DNA of 64,000 nt, taken from Candidatus Azambacteria bacterium (GTDB taxonomy: Bacteria > Patescibacteriota > Minisyncoccia > GWC2-36-17 > WO2-46-25). Within the stretch, counting starts at the first letter, position 1, and each line of letters opens with the position of its first letter. Under the pieces are notes generated by a model. The model did no database searches, was not told the DNA's origin, and worked only from the letters and a program-made list of their open reading frames with translations. The DNA lies in the NCBI GenBank assembly GCA_016200965.1, contig JACQDT010000001.1, forward strand, positions 3,544 to 67,543, written 5' to 3'. Both the position numbers and the translations under genes were made by a program. Below, piece after piece: positions 15,255-43,308 of this stretch.

Positions 15255-15756
15255 TTATCGCGAATAAAATTCCACAATACGCTGCATATTGAACGGGAGA
15301 TCAAGCTCTTCGCCTTCCGGCATCCGTTTTACCGTTGCCTTCAAGGTTTCCTTATTCAATTCCAGCCATGTATGAAGGCACATTTACGCGCCGGCCGTTG
15401 ACGGTCAGATGGCCGTGGCCGACCATCTGGTGCGCCTGACTGCGCGAACTTGAAAATCCAAGCCGATACGCCGCGTTGTCAAGCCGCGTCTCCAAAAGAC
15501 GGCCAAGCACCGTCGCGGTCATGCTCTTGCTTTTTGCCGCCATGTCAAAATACTTTCTGAACTGCCGCTCGCGCAGACCGTAGGTCCGTTTCACCTTCTG
15601 CTTTTCCGCAAGCTGAAGCGCGAATTCAGATACCCCCCTGCGATACGATTTTCCGTGCTGTCCCGGCGGATACGCGCGTTTTTTCAGCGCGCACGTTACC
15701 TTGCCGCACACCGATACTCCGAGCCGCCTGCACATTTTACATGTTGATTTGACCAT
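15255..15756 (-). CDS. rpsD: 30S ribosomal protein S4, apparently frameshifted near 15352-15365
   Basis: The N-terminal 134 aa (CRRLGVS ... GHGHLTVNGRRVNVPSY) end at a TAA. The S4 C-terminus (LELNKETLKATVKRMPEGEELDLPFNMQRIVEFYSR) continues in the +1 frame to 15255. Confidence 0.7.
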
Positions 15757-15765
15757 AAGTAGCGT

Positions 15766-16215
15766 TTAGACCCTTCTTACTTTAGGCGGACGACAGCCGT
15801 TATGCGGAATAGGAGTCACATCGGAAACAGAAAGCACGTTCAGCGCGTTGGCGATCGTGCGTACCGCGGATTCGCGCCCCGACCCGATTCCTTTCACATA
15901 CACCACCACGTCCTGCAATCCTGATTTTTTCACCTTTTCCATCACCGTTTCCACTACGCGCGTCGCGGCATACGGAGTCGCTTTTTTCGCTCCCTTGAAT
16001 CCGAGCGCACCCGCCGACGCCCAGGCAAGCACATTGCCATGATCATCGGCGACAGAAACAATGGTATTGTTATAGGTCGCCTGCACATGCGCCTGCCCCG
16101 CCTTTGTGGAACGCTTCGCCGAAGAAACGGAAATCTTTTTTTCCGCGGTTTCTTGTTCGGTGGTTTCCCGAATCATTTCCTCATCCTTTTGTGTAAGCAC
16201 CTTTTTCTTTCCCAT
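15766..16215 (-). CDS. rpsK: 30S ribosomal protein S11
   Basis: ATYNNTIVSVADDHGNVLAWASAG ... NGCRPPKVRRV, the canonical S11 sequence. Confidence 0.9.
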   Translation of the reverse strand: MGKKKVLTQKDEEMIRETTEQETAEKKISVSSAKRSTKAGQAHVQATYNNTIVSVADDHGNVLAWASAGALGFKGAKKATPYAATRVVETVMEKVKKSGLQDVVVYVKGIGSGRESAVRTIANALNVLSVSDVTPIPHNGCRPPKVRRV

Positions 16216-16217
16216 GC

Positions 16218-16555
16218 CAATGTGATTTAAGATTTATGAGCTCAATGCGAAGTAAATCTTAAATCACATTGAGCACCCCGCTCCATTTTTGCCTTTGCAT
16301 ATCGCGCGAAGTGCGCATGCCGGACCCCGAAGCAGAACCTGCGGTTCGCTACAGGGCAGGTAGGTATGAACTGCGCAATGGGGTGCCTGCCCCGTAGTGA
16401 GCTGTGCTCTACTACCGGGGAAGCGCTTCGCCCAAAACGGAGTGTGGCTATTCGCCACTCGCGCTTCGCTTGTTATTCTGTTGCAAAAATGGGGCGGGGT
16501 AAGGTTTTCTAGTCCCAATCAGAACGCTCAAAGCAATAAGCATTCTGATTGGGAC
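16218..16555. other. GC-rich structured non-coding insert between rpsM and rpsK, bracketed by perfect hairpins (possible ncRNA, regulatory leader or MITE)
   Basis: A 19-bp perfect inverted repeat at 16218-16236 / 16253-16271 lies 2 nt from the rpsK start codon. A 13-bp perfect inverted repeat sits at 16512-16524 / 16543-16555. Several internal stems such as gggcagg/cctgccc and gaagcgc/gcgcttc. Confidence 0.45.
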
Positions 16556-16563
16556 GAAAGCCC

Positions 16564-16950
16564 TTATTTCTTATCCAGCGCCCTTCTTCCCGATCCGGCG
16601 GTTTTGCGCACATTACCTCTGCGCGTGCGTGAATTGGTCTTTGTCCGCTGGCCGCGCACGGGCAGGCCTTTCATGTGCCGAATGCCCCGATATGATTTGA
16701 TGTCTTTCAACCGCTTGATATGAAACATCACGTCCCGTTTCAAATCGCCTTCTATCTTATAATTTTTTTCTATCACTTCCTTGATACGGTTGATCTCGTC
16801 GGAGGTAAGCTGCGCAGCTCGTTTGTTGACATCCACCCGCGCCTGCCCGAGCACAAATTTCGCGCGCGAAGGACCGATGCCGTATATATACGTCAGTGCA
16901 ATCTCGGCTCTTTTTTTATCAGGAATATTTACTCCCACGATGCGTGCCAT
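16564..16950 (-). CDS. rpsM: 30S ribosomal protein S13
   Basis: MARIVGVNIP ... IYGIG ... RGIRH ... LPVRGQRTKTN, the canonical S13 sequence. Confidence 0.9.
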   Translation of the reverse strand: MARIVGVNIPDKKRAEIALTYIYGIGPSRAKFVLGQARVDVNKRAAQLTSDEINRIKEVIEKNYKIEGDLKRDVMFHIKRLKDIKSYRGIRHMKGLPVRGQRTKTNSRTRRGNVRKTAGSGRRALDKK

Positions 16951-16951
16951 A

Positions 16952-17065
16952 TTATTTCTGCCGCTGTTTATGTTTTGGATTCTCGCACGTCACAAGAATA
17001 CGTCCGCGCCTGCGGACGGTCTTGCATTTCATACATATCTTTTTTACCGACGACCTGATTTTCAT
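16952..17065 (-). CDS. rpmJ: 50S ribosomal protein L36 (38 aa; not in supplied ORF track)
   Basis: Translates as [37 protein letters not shown]. Sits between infA and rpsM as expected. Confidence 0.85.
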
Positions 17066-17141
17066 TACAGACAAAATCCAGAAGCAAAAAAGCAAAGGCG
17101 AAATCCGCTCCGGATTCTGCTTTCTCGCTTCTGGATTCTAT

Positions 17142-17363
17142 TTATTGTTTAGTCCTTAACACGATCCTTCCTTTCGTGTGATCGTACGGAGTCATCTCCA
17201 CCACCACCTTGTCTCCCGGCAGTACCTTGATAAAATGAAGCCGCATTTTTCCCGCCAAGTGAGCGAAAATCAGGGTCCCGTCGTCGTCAAGTTTCACGCG
17301 AAACGTAGCATTGGGCAAATTTTCCTGAACTATCCCTTCCCTCCGAAGATTCTCATTTGGCAT
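17142..17363 (-). CDS. infA: translation initiation factor IF-1
   Basis: [33 protein letters not shown] ... [16 protein letters not shown], the canonical S1-like IF-1 sequence. Confidence 0.9.
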
Positions 17364-20239: not shown

Positions 20240-20275
20240 TTTGTCATTTTACCCCGATCGGGGTAAAATGACAAA
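20240..20275. repeat. 36-bp perfect palindrome tttgtcattttaccccgatcggggtaaaatgacaaa
   Basis: Exact self-complementary sequence in an intergenic region. Could be a terminator or an operator. Confidence 0.6.
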
Positions 20276-27814: not shown

Positions 27815-28969
27815 TCAATGGCTTTCATCATGAACGATTACGCCTCCGCCAAGCACTGCATCGTCGTCATACGACGACTGCTCCGCTCTCTGCGTTCGCG
27901 GGTTGCCGTCATACGACGACTGCTCCGCTCTCTGCGTTCGCGGGTTGCCGTCATAAAACACAATGGACTGGCCGGGGGTCACCGCGCGCTGGGGTTCGTC
28001 AAATATCACGTGAAGCGCGGCGTCAACGAAGCATTTCTGCAACGGCTGGCGATATCGGATGCGCGCTTCACAACGTAATGGAAACTGCGGCGCGGTTCCC
28101 GATATCCAACTTACACCCCGCGCAATCAATTCGGTCTTATACAAATCGCCTTCTTTTATGTTTTCCGCAACATACAGCGTGTTATGCGCGAGATCTTTTT
28201 GGGCGACGTAATACGCCGTGCCTCCGCCGGGAGAGCCGATGCCATGACGCTGGCCAATGGTGTAAAACACCGCTCCCTGATGCTTGCCCACCTGCTTTCC
28301 CGCCGCAGTCAGCACCGGCCCCGGCTGGGCGGCGATTTGGCTTTTTAGAAAATCAAACACCTCCAGTTCACCCACGAAGCATACCCCCTGGCTTTCCTTT
28401 CTGTTGGCGTTTGACAAGCCGAATTCCCGCGCGAGCTCGCGCACATGCGACTTAATAAAACCGCCTATGGGAAAAAGCACATGCGCTAATTTTTTTTGTG
28501 TCAGTGTCCACAAAAAATATGACTGGTCTTTGTTCTTGTCCATGCCGGCAAATAACGAGTAGCCGCCAGCAAGTAGTTGAGTGCGCGCATAGTGCCCCGT
28601 TGCAATAAAATCCGCTCCCATTGAAAGCGCGCGGTCAAGAAAAATACCGAACTTGATTTCTTTATTGCACATCACATCGGGATTGGGCGTGATTCCTTCA
28701 CGGTACGAAGAGACCATGTAGTCCACGACTTTCTTTTTGTATTCCTCCTGGACATCCCATGTATAAAAAGGAATGCCAAGCACGGCGGCCGCCTTGCGCG
28801 CCTCTTCCTGGTCCGCGACCCACGGGCACATCGTCTTGTCCTTGAAGAACCGGCTGTCAGACCAGCCCTTCATGAATACGCCCGTAACGTCATATCCTTC
28901 TTTTTTCAGCAATGCCGCCGCGACGGAACTGTCCACGCCGCCGGACATCGCAACGAATATTTTTTGCAT
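27815..28969 (-). CDS. mnmA: tRNA-specific 2-thiouridylase MnmA, carrying two tandem 14-aa repeat insertions near the C-terminus
   Basis: PP-loop AMSGGVDSSVAA, plus the MnmA core and C-terminal beta-barrel. The sequence IVFYDG-[NPRTQRAEQSSYDG x2]-D-AVLGGGVI shows the insert. Confidence 0.85.
   Translation of the reverse strand: MQKIFVAMSGGVDSSVAAALLKKEGYDVTGVFMKGWSDSRFFKDKTMCPWVADQEEARKAAAVLGIPFYTWDVQEEYKKKVVDYMVSSYREGITPNPDVMCNKEIKFGIFLDRALSMGADFIATGHYARTQLLAGGYSLFAGMDKNKDQSYFLWTLTQKKLAHVLFPIGGFIKSHVRELAREFGLSNANRKESQGVCFVGELEVFDFLKSQIAAQPGPVLTAAGKQVGKHQGAVFYTIGQRHGIGSPGGGTAYYVAQKDLAHNTLYVAENIKEGDLYKTELIARGVSWISGTAPQFPLRCEARIRYRQPLQKCFVDAALHVIFDEPQRAVTPGQSIVFYDGNPRTQRAEQSSYDGNPRTQRAEQSSYDDDAVLGGGVIVHDESH
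27866..27949 (+). repeat. two tandem 42-bp intragenic repeat units, copies 2 and 3
   Basis: Two exact consecutive units, followed by a partial gtcata. In frame in mnmA. Confidence 0.9.
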
Positions 28970-32427: not shown

Positions 32428-32500
32428 TTCTTTCTTTACCCCGTTAGTGATCCGCCCTGCCAAAGGCACGGCGTCAGCCGCCTCGGGGCGGCTTATCACT
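32428..32500. repeat. long hairpin overlapping the ccdA 3' end and the ccdA-tlpA intergenic gap
   Basis: ccccgttagtgatccgcc pairs with ggcggcttatcactaacgggg: a 13-bp perfect stem plus a 5-bp extension. Confidence 0.5.
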
Positions 32501-33271
32501 AACGGGGTTTACCGCGGTGGAAGCAAGATAGGAAAGAAACCCGGGGATAAGCGGCAACATACAGGGACTTAAGAATGATCCAACCCCGGCAAGAAACGAA
32601 ACTATGAAGTTAAAAATCGTCAGCGAGCTGATACCCTCGCCGATTGAGGTTACTAAATTCAGAGAAAGAAGAATATCGGTAAGAAACTGAAGATTTGCGA
32701 TACGGGAGAGAGTTCCTGTAAAAACAAACACGCCCATTGCGATGAGCACTGCCCCGAAAAAATACTGAAAGTAGAGAAGCTTCTTGCCCAAACGATTGAT
32801 GAGCGCCTGGGCCTGGTTCGTGAAAAGCCCGACCAAAAGGAATGGAATGCCGATTCCGAGCGTATAGGCGAAAAGCAGGAAAAACGCGCTCGATGCCGCT
32901 GTACTCGCAAGCGCCAAAATTGCGCCGAGCGCCACAGAAACGCACGGCGTCCAGCCAACGGCAAAGGCCGCGCCGAACACAAACGACGTCAGGTAGTGCG
33001 AATGGAACCGGCGCTTGACCGTGACGGTATGGCCGCGCTTCAGAAACGCCGGCGTAAAAAATCCAAGCAGAAAAAATCCGAACAGAATAATGATCACGCC
33101 GCCGATTCGGCCCAGCCATTCCTGAACCGTGTAGGAAGCGCTTGAAAGGACCGTCTGTAGCAGAACGCCGACCAGCGAGAATACGAGTGAAAAGCCCAGC
33201 ACAAAGAAAACGCTTGAGAGGAAAATGCTCCAATCGCGGCCGGGTTTTTCAGAAGACACTATTTGATCCAT
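32474..33271 (-). CDS. ccdA: cytochrome c-type biogenesis protein CcdA (DsbD transmembrane domain)
   Basis: FLAGVGSFLSPCMLPLIPGFLS and a second Cys-containing TM motif. Six or more TM helices. Confidence 0.8.
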   Translation of the reverse strand: MDQIVSSEKPGRDWSIFLSSVFFVLGFSLVFSLVGVLLQTVLSSASYTVQEWLGRIGGVIIILFGFFLLGFFTPAFLKRGHTVTVKRRFHSHYLTSFVFGAAFAVGWTPCVSVALGAILALASTAASSAFFLLFAYTLGIGIPFLLVGLFTNQAQALINRLGKKLLYFQYFFGAVLIAMGVFVFTGTLSRIANLQFLTDILLSLNLVTSIGEGISSLTIFNFIVSFLAGVGSFLSPCMLPLIPGFLSYLASTAVNPVSDKPPRGG

Positions 33272-36057: not shown

Positions 36058-36295
36058 ATTTGATAGAGAAAATTTCTTCTACAGATATTGGTTTTTTTCC
36101 ACCGGAGGCGGATCCGCCTTCGGCGGAGAAAAACTTTGCCATTTTAAGCGCCAAAAGCACCAAGGGAGTGTAATTCCCCTTCTCAATCGCGATAATTGTC
36201 TGGCGCGTTACGCCAACCGCATGGGCCAACTCTTCTTGGGTGATGCCGGTTTTTGTTCGTAATTCGTACACCTGATTCTTGATAATTTCTTTCAT
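36047..36295 (-). CDS. XRE-family helix-turn-helix transcriptional regulator
   Basis: [45 protein letters not shown] is a YozG/Cro-C1-type HTH. The C-terminus contains the in-frame palindromic element that encodes [10 protein letters not shown]. Confidence 0.75.
36099..36126. repeat. 28-bp GC-rich near-perfect palindrome ccaccggaggcggatccgccttcggcgg, in frame inside the XRE regulator gene
   Basis: Self-complementary around a central GGATCC. Second copy at 38018-38045. Confidence 0.8.
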
Positions 36296-37121: not shown

Positions 37122-38143
37122 ATCTCCCAAAGCCAGCATCCATAATCATAGGGGGATTGTTCATTGCAGTCTTGGGATATTCCGTTTTGTCGCGCACTCT
37201 GTTCCAGAACGACTTTCCCATGCCGCAAGGCGGAGAAACCAAAAAAGAAACAAAGGGAATTATGATAACGGACGGCGTGAAACATAGCGTGCCGCTTGAT
37301 GAAATCATCGGAGGCGGCCCTTCAAAAGACGGCATACCGTCCATTGATAAGCCAAAGTTTGTTGTTCTTGCGGAAGCCAACTCGTTCTTGAAGGACTCCG
37401 AGCCGGGCATTGCGTTAGAGATGGGCGGCGTGAGCCGATTTTATCCGTTCCAAATTCTCGTGTGGCATGAAATTGTGAATGACACGATTGGCGGCACGCG
37501 CGTGCTGGTAACCTATTGCCCTTTGTGTCTTTCGGGAATTGTCTTTGATCCGGCAGTAAATGGCGAGCGCGTCGAATTCGGCACTTCGGGTAAATTATGG
37601 AATTCCAATTTAGTCATGTATGACCGCAAGACCGATTCGTTATGGTCGCAAATTTTGGGTGAAGCGATTGTCGGAGAGATGACGGGCATGAAGCTCGCGG
37701 TTCTCCCGTCCGACATGATCCGCTTCGGAGATTTCAAAAAATTGCATCCTGAGGGCAGCGTTCTTTCCCGCGACACGGGTACAACGCGCTTCTACGGCCA
37801 AGACCCGTACGGCGATTACTACACGACCCCGGGAACTTATTTCCCGGTCGGCAAAAAGGATGCCCGTCTTAATGAAAAAGATTTTGTCCTTGGCGTTGTC
37901 GTCAATGGAAAAGCAAAAGCATATTGGCCGGAAGCGGTGAAAAAAGCCGGCGAGGTAACGGATCGGTTTGAAGGAAAAGATATCGTTGCGCGATACGAAA
38001 AAGAGGTTGACGCGGTGCGTCTTTTTTCCGCCGAAGGCGGATCCGCCTCTGGCGGAGAGAAGAAATTAGTACGCATCAATTCATTCGGCGCGTTCTGGTT
38101 TTCCTGGGTTGCCGCGCATCCGGAGACGGAGTTGTACAAATGA
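37118..38143 (+). CDS. DUF3179-family secreted protein
   Basis: N-terminal signal anchor. YCPLC ... WNSNLVMYDRKTDSLWSQ pattern characteristic of DUF3179. The C-terminus contains the in-frame palindromic element encoding [10 protein letters not shown]. Confidence 0.55.
   Translation: MNLPKPASIIIGGLFIAVLGYSVLSRTLFQNDFPMPQGGETKKETKGIMITDGVKHSVPLDEIIGGGPSKDGIPSIDKPKFVVLAEANSFLKDSEPGIALEMGGVSRFYPFQILVWHEIVNDTIGGTRVLVTYCPLCLSGIVFDPAVNGERVEFGTSGKLWNSNLVMYDRKTDSLWSQILGEAIVGEMTGMKLAVLPSDMIRFGDFKKLHPEGSVLSRDTGTTRFYGQDPYGDYYTTPGTYFPVGKKDARLNEKDFVLGVVVNGKAKAYWPEAVKKAGEVTDRFEGKDIVARYEKEVDAVRLFSAEGGSASGGEKKLVRINSFGAFWFSWVAAHPETELYK
38018..38045. repeat. 28-bp GC-rich palindrome ccgccgaaggcggatccgcctctggcgg, in frame inside the DUF3179 gene
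   Basis: Near-identical to the element at 36099-36126 in reverse-complement-equivalent form. Encodes the same [10 protein letters not shown] peptide. Confidence 0.8.
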
Positions 38144-43227: not shown

Positions 43228-43308
43228 ATCGCCAATGTTACCACAAAAGGAAAACGAAAGACCAGAGCGCCGCGGCGCTCTGGTCTTTCACCGGAATATC
43301 AGCTCCGT

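Follow-up and report, generated by a model that had tools for sequence, protein, structure and literature searches.

The window analysed here is a 64-kb stretch (64,000 nucleotides) of DNA from a Candidatus Azambacteria bacterium, and its minus strand carries the operon infA-rpmJ-rpsM-rpsK-rpsD-rpoA, in which rpsM and rpsK, the genes for ribosomal proteins S13 and S11, are separated by 348 bp (16216-16563; Table 1). An initial annotation had singled out this gap as unusually long, and the gene limits do leave all of it free: in 80 distant genomes the same spacer measures 1-60 nt in most cases and about 173 nt at most, and in eight relatives about 4-72 nt. We find that the 348-bp spacer is an insertion specific to this Candidatus Azambacteria lineage, and that its central 226 bp, the core, is a copy of a non-coding, dispersed family of palindromic repeats whose copies lie in either orientation, in rRNA and mRNA contexts alike, and whose structure is kept by compensatory change.

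Table 1 Parts of the rpsM-rpsK insertion and its neighbouring genes in the window, followed by the sites of family copies in other loci (flanking genes separated by a slash)
Feature	Position	Strand	Remarks
infA	17142-17363	-	Gene order infA-rpmJ-rpsM-rpsK-rpsD-rpoA, all on the minus strand
rpmJ	16952-17065	-	5' of rpsM in the same operon
rpsM (S13)	16564-16950	-	Upstream gene; stop codon touches module B
rpsK (S11)	15766-16215	-	Downstream gene; start codon touches module A
Whole mosaic insertion	16216-16563	-	Entire rpsM-rpsK spacer, from rpsM stop +1 base to rpsK ATG -1 base
Module B, 5' accessory hairpin (mRNA strand)	16501-16565	-	Begins at the rpsM stop codon
Core, long-form copy of the dispersed palindromic repeat family	16275-16500	-	226 bp; limits from blastn and nhmmer homology, and R1 score
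P1 closing stem, 5' arm ACCCCGCCCCATTTTTGC	16483-16500	-	10/16 P1 pairs changed on both sides across the family
Invariant box 1 GCGAAGCGCG and hairpin H1 (GTGGC-GAATA-GCCAC)	16444-16469	-	(Nearly) invariant: 16/16 short-form copies, 3/3 long forms
Central palindrome GGGCGAAGCGCTTCCCC	16417-16433	-	
Long-form-specific inner domain	16316-16416	-	Three hairpins, including gggcagg/cctgccc; stands in for hairpin H2 of the short form
3' box CGCACTTCGCGC	16304-16315	-	Pairs with box 1 to give P2
P1 closing stem, 3' arm GCAAAAATGGAGCGGGGT	16275-16292	-	One C-A mismatch (minus strand), which is G.U on the plus strand
Module A, 3' accessory hairpin	16216-16274	-	19-bp perfect stem 16218-16236/16253-16271; ends 2 nt before the rpsK ATG
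Copy in L092	rpsD/rpoA		Second, cut copy at rpsK/rpsD
Copies in L098 and L093	rpsP/KH-protein gene		Two genomes, opposite orientations
Copy in L106	rpsF/ssb		
Copy in L094	prfB/ftsE		
Copy in L089	upstream of rpsL		
Copy in L098	nusB/rnc		
Copy in L101	ligA/pilin		
Copies in L102-104	after a hisS-like gene		
Copies in L105	after a Xer-type recombinase		Tandem pair
Copy in L090/L091	ssrA/infC		Directly 3' of the transfer-messenger RNA (tmRNA) gene, 5 nt before infC
Copy in L109	directly after tRNAs		
Copy in L100	loop of a 16S hairpin		Rfam model position ~206-216
Copies in L110 (twice) and L095	23S hairpins		Three different hairpins

On folding, the spacer resolves into three independent self-closing modules: hairpin B at the rpsM end, the multi-branched core, and hairpin A at the rpsK end. 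The fold energy is -170.8 kcal/mol for the minus strand and -178 kcal/mol for the plus strand, against about -105 and -111 for shuffled sequences, which corresponds to z-scores of -11.1 and -13.2. The inverted repeats noticed in the initial annotation are all present, namely the 19-bp perfect repeat of module A, at the distance from the rpsK ATG given there, a 13-bp perfect repeat (16512-16524/16543-16555) that extends to 17 nt at 94%, and the gggcagg/cctgccc and gaagcgc/gcgcttc stems; absent from that list was the 18-bp long-range stem, P1, that closes the middle of the spacer (16275-16292/16483-16500). Module B consists of an outer stem, AAGGGCTTTC/GAAAACCTT (16556-16565/16501-16509), and an inner stem of 17-20 bp at 16512-16555. 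The insert had also been called GC-rich, which is true of the core (59% GC) and not of the spacer as a whole (52%, with flanks at 50-53%), hairpins A and B being AT-rich with 34% and 44% GC, respectively; core and flanks have GC skews of opposite sign. All 20 nt upstream of the ATG are paired for rpsK alone among 56 window genes. Most regions upstream of window open reading frames (ORFs) are A/T-rich and unstructured, with a median fold energy of -8 kcal/mol over 60 nt, and Shine-Dalgarno-like motifs are few even by a loose criterion (9 of the 54 ATG-started ORFs of at least 120 aa).

The S11 of the window is 100% identical to a 136-aa NCBI protein over the length of the latter, which identifies the organism as Candidatus Azambacteria (Parcubacteria). 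The relatives compared are eight loci (labels L085-L088, L111 and L113-L116) whose S11 proteins are 71-86% identical to that of the window. Only 4-18 nt lie between the rpsM stop and the rpsK ATG in the five with S11 identities of 81-86%, as in TAA-TAGT-ATG, and about 20-72 nt in the more distant ones (71-75%). The core is found in none of the eight loci, and the family model introduced below has no match in these loci and the 80 other genomes, about 520 kb in total. It is because the relatives have such short spacers, none with the core, that we regard the 348 bp as inserted; absence from close relatives had been set beforehand as a check, and the outcome is the one predicted for an insertion.

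The probability that the spacer is instead an assembly artefact, or a chimera in a metagenome-assembled contig, is close to nil. A probable assembly or variant defect does lie nearby, at about 15371 inside rpsD (15352-15756), where 100 bp found in three independent contigs from this organism (L081, at 2015-2114, L082 and L083) are missing from the window; this gap, an assembly error or a deletion variant, splits rpsD and leaves an ORF of 134 aa instead of 200 aa. L081, an independent Logan contig from another run with the order infA-rpsM-spacer-rpsK-rpsD, nevertheless carries the same 348 bp with 3 substitutions, and three further contigs, from other runs, extend over hairpin A and into the core. 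Agreement among four runs, with one contig across the full spacer, therefore rules against an artefact. The three variants of L081 fall in the core, at 16353-16365, and one of them turns a G-C pair of the gggcagg/cctgccc stem into G.U on the mRNA-sense strand.

The repeat family was collected by translating the longest spurious ORF of the core and scanning it against a metagenome collection, which yields 22 loci (L089-L110) with up to two copies per contig. These are groundwater and sediment metagenome contigs, and the two hosts that can be traced are both Parcubacteria. DNA homology between the window and these loci, by blastn and nhmmer, has its exact limits at 16500 and 16275, where the closing stem has its outermost base pairs. 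The covariance model of the family, R1, scores the window copy at 108.8 bits (E = 4e-28), long forms at 100-110 bits and short forms at 138-168 bits. The long form, of about 230 nt, is found in three loci and is 68-71% identical to the window core, whereas the short form, of about 150 nt, has one hairpin where the window has its inner ~100 nt (16316-16416). This inner domain is common to L108 and L090/L091 (68-71% identity), and its first hairpin is kept in the long forms despite an entirely different sequence.

In every copy a closing stem of 16-18 bp, which covaries, surrounds an invariant interior of three GCGAAGCGC-type boxes and two opposed hairpins with GAATA and TATTC loops. Two opposed half-sites, each made of a box and a GAATA-loop hairpin, can be recognised in the multi-branched unit of 150-230 nt. 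Alignment of 16 short forms gives about 57 invariant columns, which comprise GCGAAGCGCG-A-GTGGC-GAATA-GCCAC, GGGCGCAGCGCTTCGCCC, the TATTC loop and CGCACTGCGC. P1 and hairpin H2 covary: 97.5% of their pair cells are paired, and 18 pairs and 65 cells have changed on both sides, a result reached by none of 500 column shuffles, while controls in which the partner is slid are 34-48% paired. The reverse strand of the copies folds equally well, and G.U pairs (9) and A.C mismatches (6) are about equally rare, so that no strand call is possible; both strands therefore pair essentially by Watson-Crick rules, which is what a DNA palindrome should show, and likewise a hairpin that serves in either orientation. 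Pairwise identity among copies is 60-82%, even inside one contig, and thus points to an old family under constraint and not to a recent burst. A kissing interaction between the GAATA and TATTC loops was considered and rejected, as the loops show no covariation and change on a single side in L110b, L106 and L102. Truncated or half copies at L107 (3001-3149) and L099 (813-862) have a compensatory box variant, GCGAGGCGC/GCGCCTCGC for GCGAAGCGC/GCGCTTCGC, a hint that box 1 may alternatively pair with the central palindrome.

No second copy is detected in the 64-kb window by blastn, nhmmer or the covariance model, and a 14-bit match at 27981-28097, inside a 384-aa ORF, is taken as spurious. Phage and plasmid collections give no match by blastn, nor do viral contigs when searched with the pseudo-protein and an invariant 26-mer; a six-frame concatenated translation has no match in a set of 5.8 billion proteins, a search that is underpowered for such short conserved blocks. 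The Rfam search proposed with the initial annotation finds no match in the spacer, and at gathering as well as permissive thresholds the spacer, the window, 20 related loci and a short-form copy return noise only, of the kind of miRNA-like hairpin matches and ncS011 at 17 bits against a cutoff of 48. In the literature we found no description of this family or of a palindromic repeat in the Candidate Phyla Radiation (CPR), and none that ties such insertions to intergenic repeats.

The sites occupied by the copies are listed in Table 1. Two of the three 23S sites match, by position, the classical helix 25 and helix 45 intervening-sequence sites, and each of the three is occupied in one genome and empty in the other (L110, L095). 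Relative to host transcription, 15 copies are sense and 5 antisense, and about 12 of the 17 non-rRNA copies adjoin translation or RNA-metabolism genes. Among the neighbouring ORFs we find no linked mobilising enzyme: they are housekeeping genes, with one Xer-type recombinase, at L105. The tandem pair at that locus (1086-1394) consists of short forms that overlap by TTGAC, and the 3' end of the element, GGGGTTGACA, followed by CATAAT 18 nt further on, looks like an outward-facing promoter; TTGACA is found at copy ends in L097 and L099 too. At L091 (1020-1265; the same as L090) a long-form copy begins at the extreme 3' end of the tmRNA gene, and the direct repeat CCACCT on both sides of it may stem from target duplication or from duplication of the tmRNA 3' end.

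This distribution effectively refutes one of the candidates put forward in the initial annotation, an autoregulatory ribosomal protein leader, in which hairpin A and the core would mimic the rRNA site of S11, S13 or S4 and repress rpsK translation. Such a leader would fit the location in the alpha operon (rpsM-rpsK-rpsD-rpoA) and the full sequestration of the rpsK start region, and a weak, sub-threshold Alpha_RBS match lies at 16918-17005, though inside rpsM and outside the spacer. The insert is, however, missing in all eight related loci, and the same core stands upstream of ftsE, ssb, infC and the gene for a KH protein as well as within rRNA genes, with copies in both orientations. Apart from the inserted copies themselves, no resemblance to rRNA was found, the short form being unlike the remaining 16S/23S sequence. 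We regard this reading as most improbable.

Searched alone with nhmmer and blastn, modules A and B give nothing significant beyond the same organism. Their relation to the flanks of the copies in L089, L094 and L101 was assessed by position-anchored global alignments against shuffles, and we find that module A resembles the core-to-ATG segments of L089 (rpsL) and L094 (ftsE) with z of 7-8, and module B the 5' core flank of the same two loci, as well as the inverted 3' flank of L101, with z of 4.4-6.3, values reached by 0 of 500 shuffles in each case. The window, L089 and L094 have GGGCTTT...CCAA...TTGG...AAACCTT in common on the 5' side and GCTCAAT...GCTCATAAAT...ATTGGC on the 3' side, with ATTGGC directly before the downstream ATG at three loci (rpsK, rpsL and ftsE). 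The flank similarity at L089 and L094 therefore makes the whole 348 bp one mosaic, similar to a bacterial interspersed mosaic element (BIME), rather than a core that inserted where two hairpins already stood. The sequences of A and B do not resemble each other, and a B-type hairpin alone (72 nt) fills the rpsM-rpsK spacer of another Azambacteria genome (L115, 1390-1461).

A small structured RNA, another of the initial candidates, has fared better in one respect, in that the structure is real and conserved, and worse in the other, namely as a gene of its own. In that reading the insert would be an independent, trans-acting noncoding RNA transcribed from either strand or excised from the operon transcript, which we hold to be very doubtful. 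Very strong folding z-scores, a multi-stem fold backed by covariation, several G.U pairs on the mRNA-sense strand of long forms and a core GC skew opposite to that of the flanks speak for it. Against this, the spacer has neither a sigma-70-like promoter on the minus strand nor a strong terminator, both strands fold equally well across the family, the same sequence sits within helices of rRNA and runs either with or against host transcription, and Rfam holds no matching family. A tRNA and tmRNA scan of the window found none.

The closest of the initial candidates is a MITE-like insertion (miniature inverted-repeat transposable element). A lineage-specific, dispersed palindromic repeat is indeed what we find, with 22 dispersed loci, an rpsM-rpsK site that is empty in relatives and three 23S sites that are filled or empty between genomes. 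The element is nonetheless not a formal MITE, since no target-site duplication of fixed length accompanies it (TG/TTG at some copies, CAG in L102, CCACCT in L090 and none in the window) and its ends, which pair as P1, covary in 10 of 16 pairs, the invariant positions being interior and not terminal.

Correia elements of Neisseria (CREE/NEMIS) have conserved 26-bp terminal inverted repeats, a TA target duplication, a site for IHF and hundreds of copies. The present family has no sequence similarity to them, and it differs in its covarying terminal stem, invariant interior, lack of a fixed duplication and low copy number. Both are non-coding intergenic palindromic repeats, of about 100-155 bp in Correia, and some copies of the present family end in TTGACA, a possible -35 box (L105, L097, L099). 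One study of Correia elements describes co-transcription with neighbours, long hairpins, possible binding or cutting by RNase III, and altered expression of adjacent genes (PMC2649163).

The likeness to rRNA intervening sequences, which RNase III removes, holds for the copies in L100, L110 (twice) and L095, which sit at helix tips as extended stem-loops of about 150 nt that replace the loops of a 16S hairpin and three 23S hairpins. Many of the rRNA insertions known in CPR bacteria are short, without ORFs and unclassified, and they cluster at known RNase III intervening-sequence sites (Tsurumaki et al. 2024, PMC11270868). The window copy, in contrast, lies between protein genes, in an mRNA spacer and not in rRNA. 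We know of no classical intervening-sequence family that recurs as an intercistronic element in the same genomes.

Repetitive extragenic palindromic sequences (REPs), and the BIME, REPIN and enterobacterial repetitive intergenic consensus (ERIC/IRU) elements, resemble the present family in that palindromic units are joined into mosaics in transcribed intergenic spacers. The two inverted half-sites, with a small hairpin in each, recall the REPIN doublet, and accessory palindromic units are found by themselves (L115) or next to the core (L101), as in REP/BIME systems. The REPs of proteobacteria are 20-40 nt long, have a conserved 5' tetranucleotide and hundreds of copies, and are linked to a gene for RAYT, the Y1 HUH transposase that mobilises REPINs. 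Since the present unit is much larger (150-230 nt) and has a multi-branched fold, we do not file it as a REP or REPIN. Rickettsia palindromic elements are palindromes of a reduced genome, inserted into tmRNA and essential genes without destroying them. They differ in entering protein-coding sequence in frame, and no present copy is seen inside a coding frame, except in L094, where 8 codons of the upstream ORF lie in module B.

Two further assignments were rejected. An IS200/IS605-derived PATE, or a remnant of a TnpB/IscB omega-RNA, does not agree with A and B hairpins that are dissimilar and a core that is inverted and not direct, and there is no tnpA, tnpB or iscB nearby and no Rfam match to HEARO or IS605-orfB motifs. 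A group I or II intron or a self-cleaving ribozyme finds no Rfam match at E <= 1 for the spacer or at E <= 10 for the short-form copy.

We consider it fairly probable that the spacer is a non-autonomous mobile element, a palindromic mosaic dependent on its hairpins, which is co-transcribed with its host genes and tolerated through self-folding. Mobility is suggested because covariation is Watson-Crick on both strands, the invariant internal boxes are candidate recognition sites and the family has no coding capacity; to spread, it would have to fold into its hairpin form and be served by an enzyme that recognises the invariant interior in trans. As the spacer has no promoter on the minus strand and no convincing terminator, the element would be co-transcribed with the infA-rpmJ-rpsM-rpsK-rpsD-rpoA operon. 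Tolerance may follow from the fact that each module pairs its own ends and would keep the flanking host RNA juxtaposed, so that an rRNA helix would only be lengthened, and a stop codon and the next start codon would still be brought together. The long stems (18 bp in P1, 19-21 bp in A and 17-20 bp in B) are plausible substrates of RNase III, as judged from the rRNA intervening sequences known from the same 23S positions. Such cleavage would part the rpsM and rpsK mRNA and could free the fully sequestered rpsK start region. The tiny rpsM-rpsK spacer of the relatives suggests that rpsK is dependent on translational coupling there.

Several observations weigh against a mobile element of this kind. 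Neither a transposase nor another linked enzyme is present among the ORFs that neighbour the copies, and a consistent target-site duplication is not found across copies. The copies are old and diverged, at 60-82% identity and without a recent burst, and the 64 kb of this genome hold only one of them. In other copies the A hairpin has just 9-10 bp, too short for RNase III, and cleavage of the element by this enzyme remains a prediction by analogy. A further difficulty is how rpsK is translated behind a hairpin of -27 kcal/mol, in a genome region with few Shine-Dalgarno-like motifs (9/54), a puzzle that cleavage by RNase III would solve. Finally, the invariant interior, the sense bias (15/20) and the preference for translation loci could equally mean a host function.

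One form that a host function might take is operon punctuation, in which the host has exapted and keeps the element, and RNase III or a box-binding protein processes or stabilises polycistronic mRNAs and rRNA precursors; as an exapted module it would uncouple or balance the expression of neighbouring translation genes. We regard this as unlikely. It would account for an interior that is invariant while the stems covary and the copies are only 60-82% identical, for the association of about 12 of 17 non-rRNA copies with translation or RNA-metabolism genes, for the sense bias of 15:5, for a module A that is flush with the start codon at three loci, and for copies at hairpins that resemble the classical 23S RNase III intervening-sequence sites H25 and H45 (PMC11270868). 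It is harder to reconcile with eight related loci that manage without the element in the same spacer, with the occurrence of both orientations, even in the same rpsP-KH spacer, with the lack of strand asymmetry (G.U 9 against A.C 6) and with the low copy density. A more specific proposal, and an unlikely one, is that the core is more than a parasite, namely a sequence-specific structured module of RNA or single-stranded DNA to which a conserved factor of Parcubacteria binds. It would then be a shared signal for processing or punctuation, through which maturation of the translation apparatus is co-ordinated in streamlined genomes that have few Shine-Dalgarno-like motifs. Such a module would be shared by rRNA precursors, tmRNA and tRNA loci, and ribosomal protein and translation-factor operons, and module A would be a portable start-codon context from which the downstream gene is expressed after translational coupling has been broken.

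Other palindromes are found in this operon and elsewhere in the window. A second lineage-specific hairpin insert, 76 nt long with a 20-bp stem and -40 kcal/mol, lies between infA and rpmJ (17066-17141), genes that abut as TAAATG in relatives; the relatives have unrelated palindromes of their own, at L087 ~1990-2100 between rpmJ and rpsM (~88 nt) and at L111 1951-2033 between rpsK and rpsD (83 nt, -32 kcal/mol). Palindromic units in various spacers of this operon thus make the colonisation of intercistronic spacers a general habit of these genomes. At 32438-32508, a 71-nt intercistronic hairpin of -50 kcal/mol has termini, ACCCCGTTAG...CTAACGGGGT, that match those of P1 in the family. The interior has no relation to the family and the covariance model does not detect this hairpin, which may be a minimal or distant relative. 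Two copies of another palindromic unit, TTTTTTCCGCCGAAGGCGGATCCGCCTCTGGCGGAGA..., at 36091-36134 and 38020-38063, look like a bidirectional terminator or a REP, and perfect palindromes of 36 bp and 34 bp, their arms without a spacer, lie at 20240-20275 and 43256-43289.

In kind, the family behaves like the transcribed palindromic repeats of the Correia, ERIC and BIME type and like rRNA intervening sequences. What we rate as new is a structure-conserved mosaic palindromic repeat of Parcubacteria that is both an rRNA insertion and an intercistronic insert. Few known genomes are as streamlined as those of CPR/Patescibacteria, and yet insertions abound in their rRNA genes; the short non-intron class of these insertions is uncharacterised (PMC11270868). 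At least some of these rRNA insertions are now tied to one definable, structure-conserved family that is also found in small spacers of essential operons, and model R1 and the invariant motif GCGAAGCGCGAGTGGCGAATAGCCAC provide a handle for the annotation of CPR rRNA insertions and over-long spacers. The spacer in the window should be annotated neither as a regulatory leader nor as a gene. The survival of genes that are probably dependent on coupling, behind a structured insert of 348 nt, constitutes a natural experiment, and the family lends itself to testing whether elements of this sort act as parasites or as processing signals.

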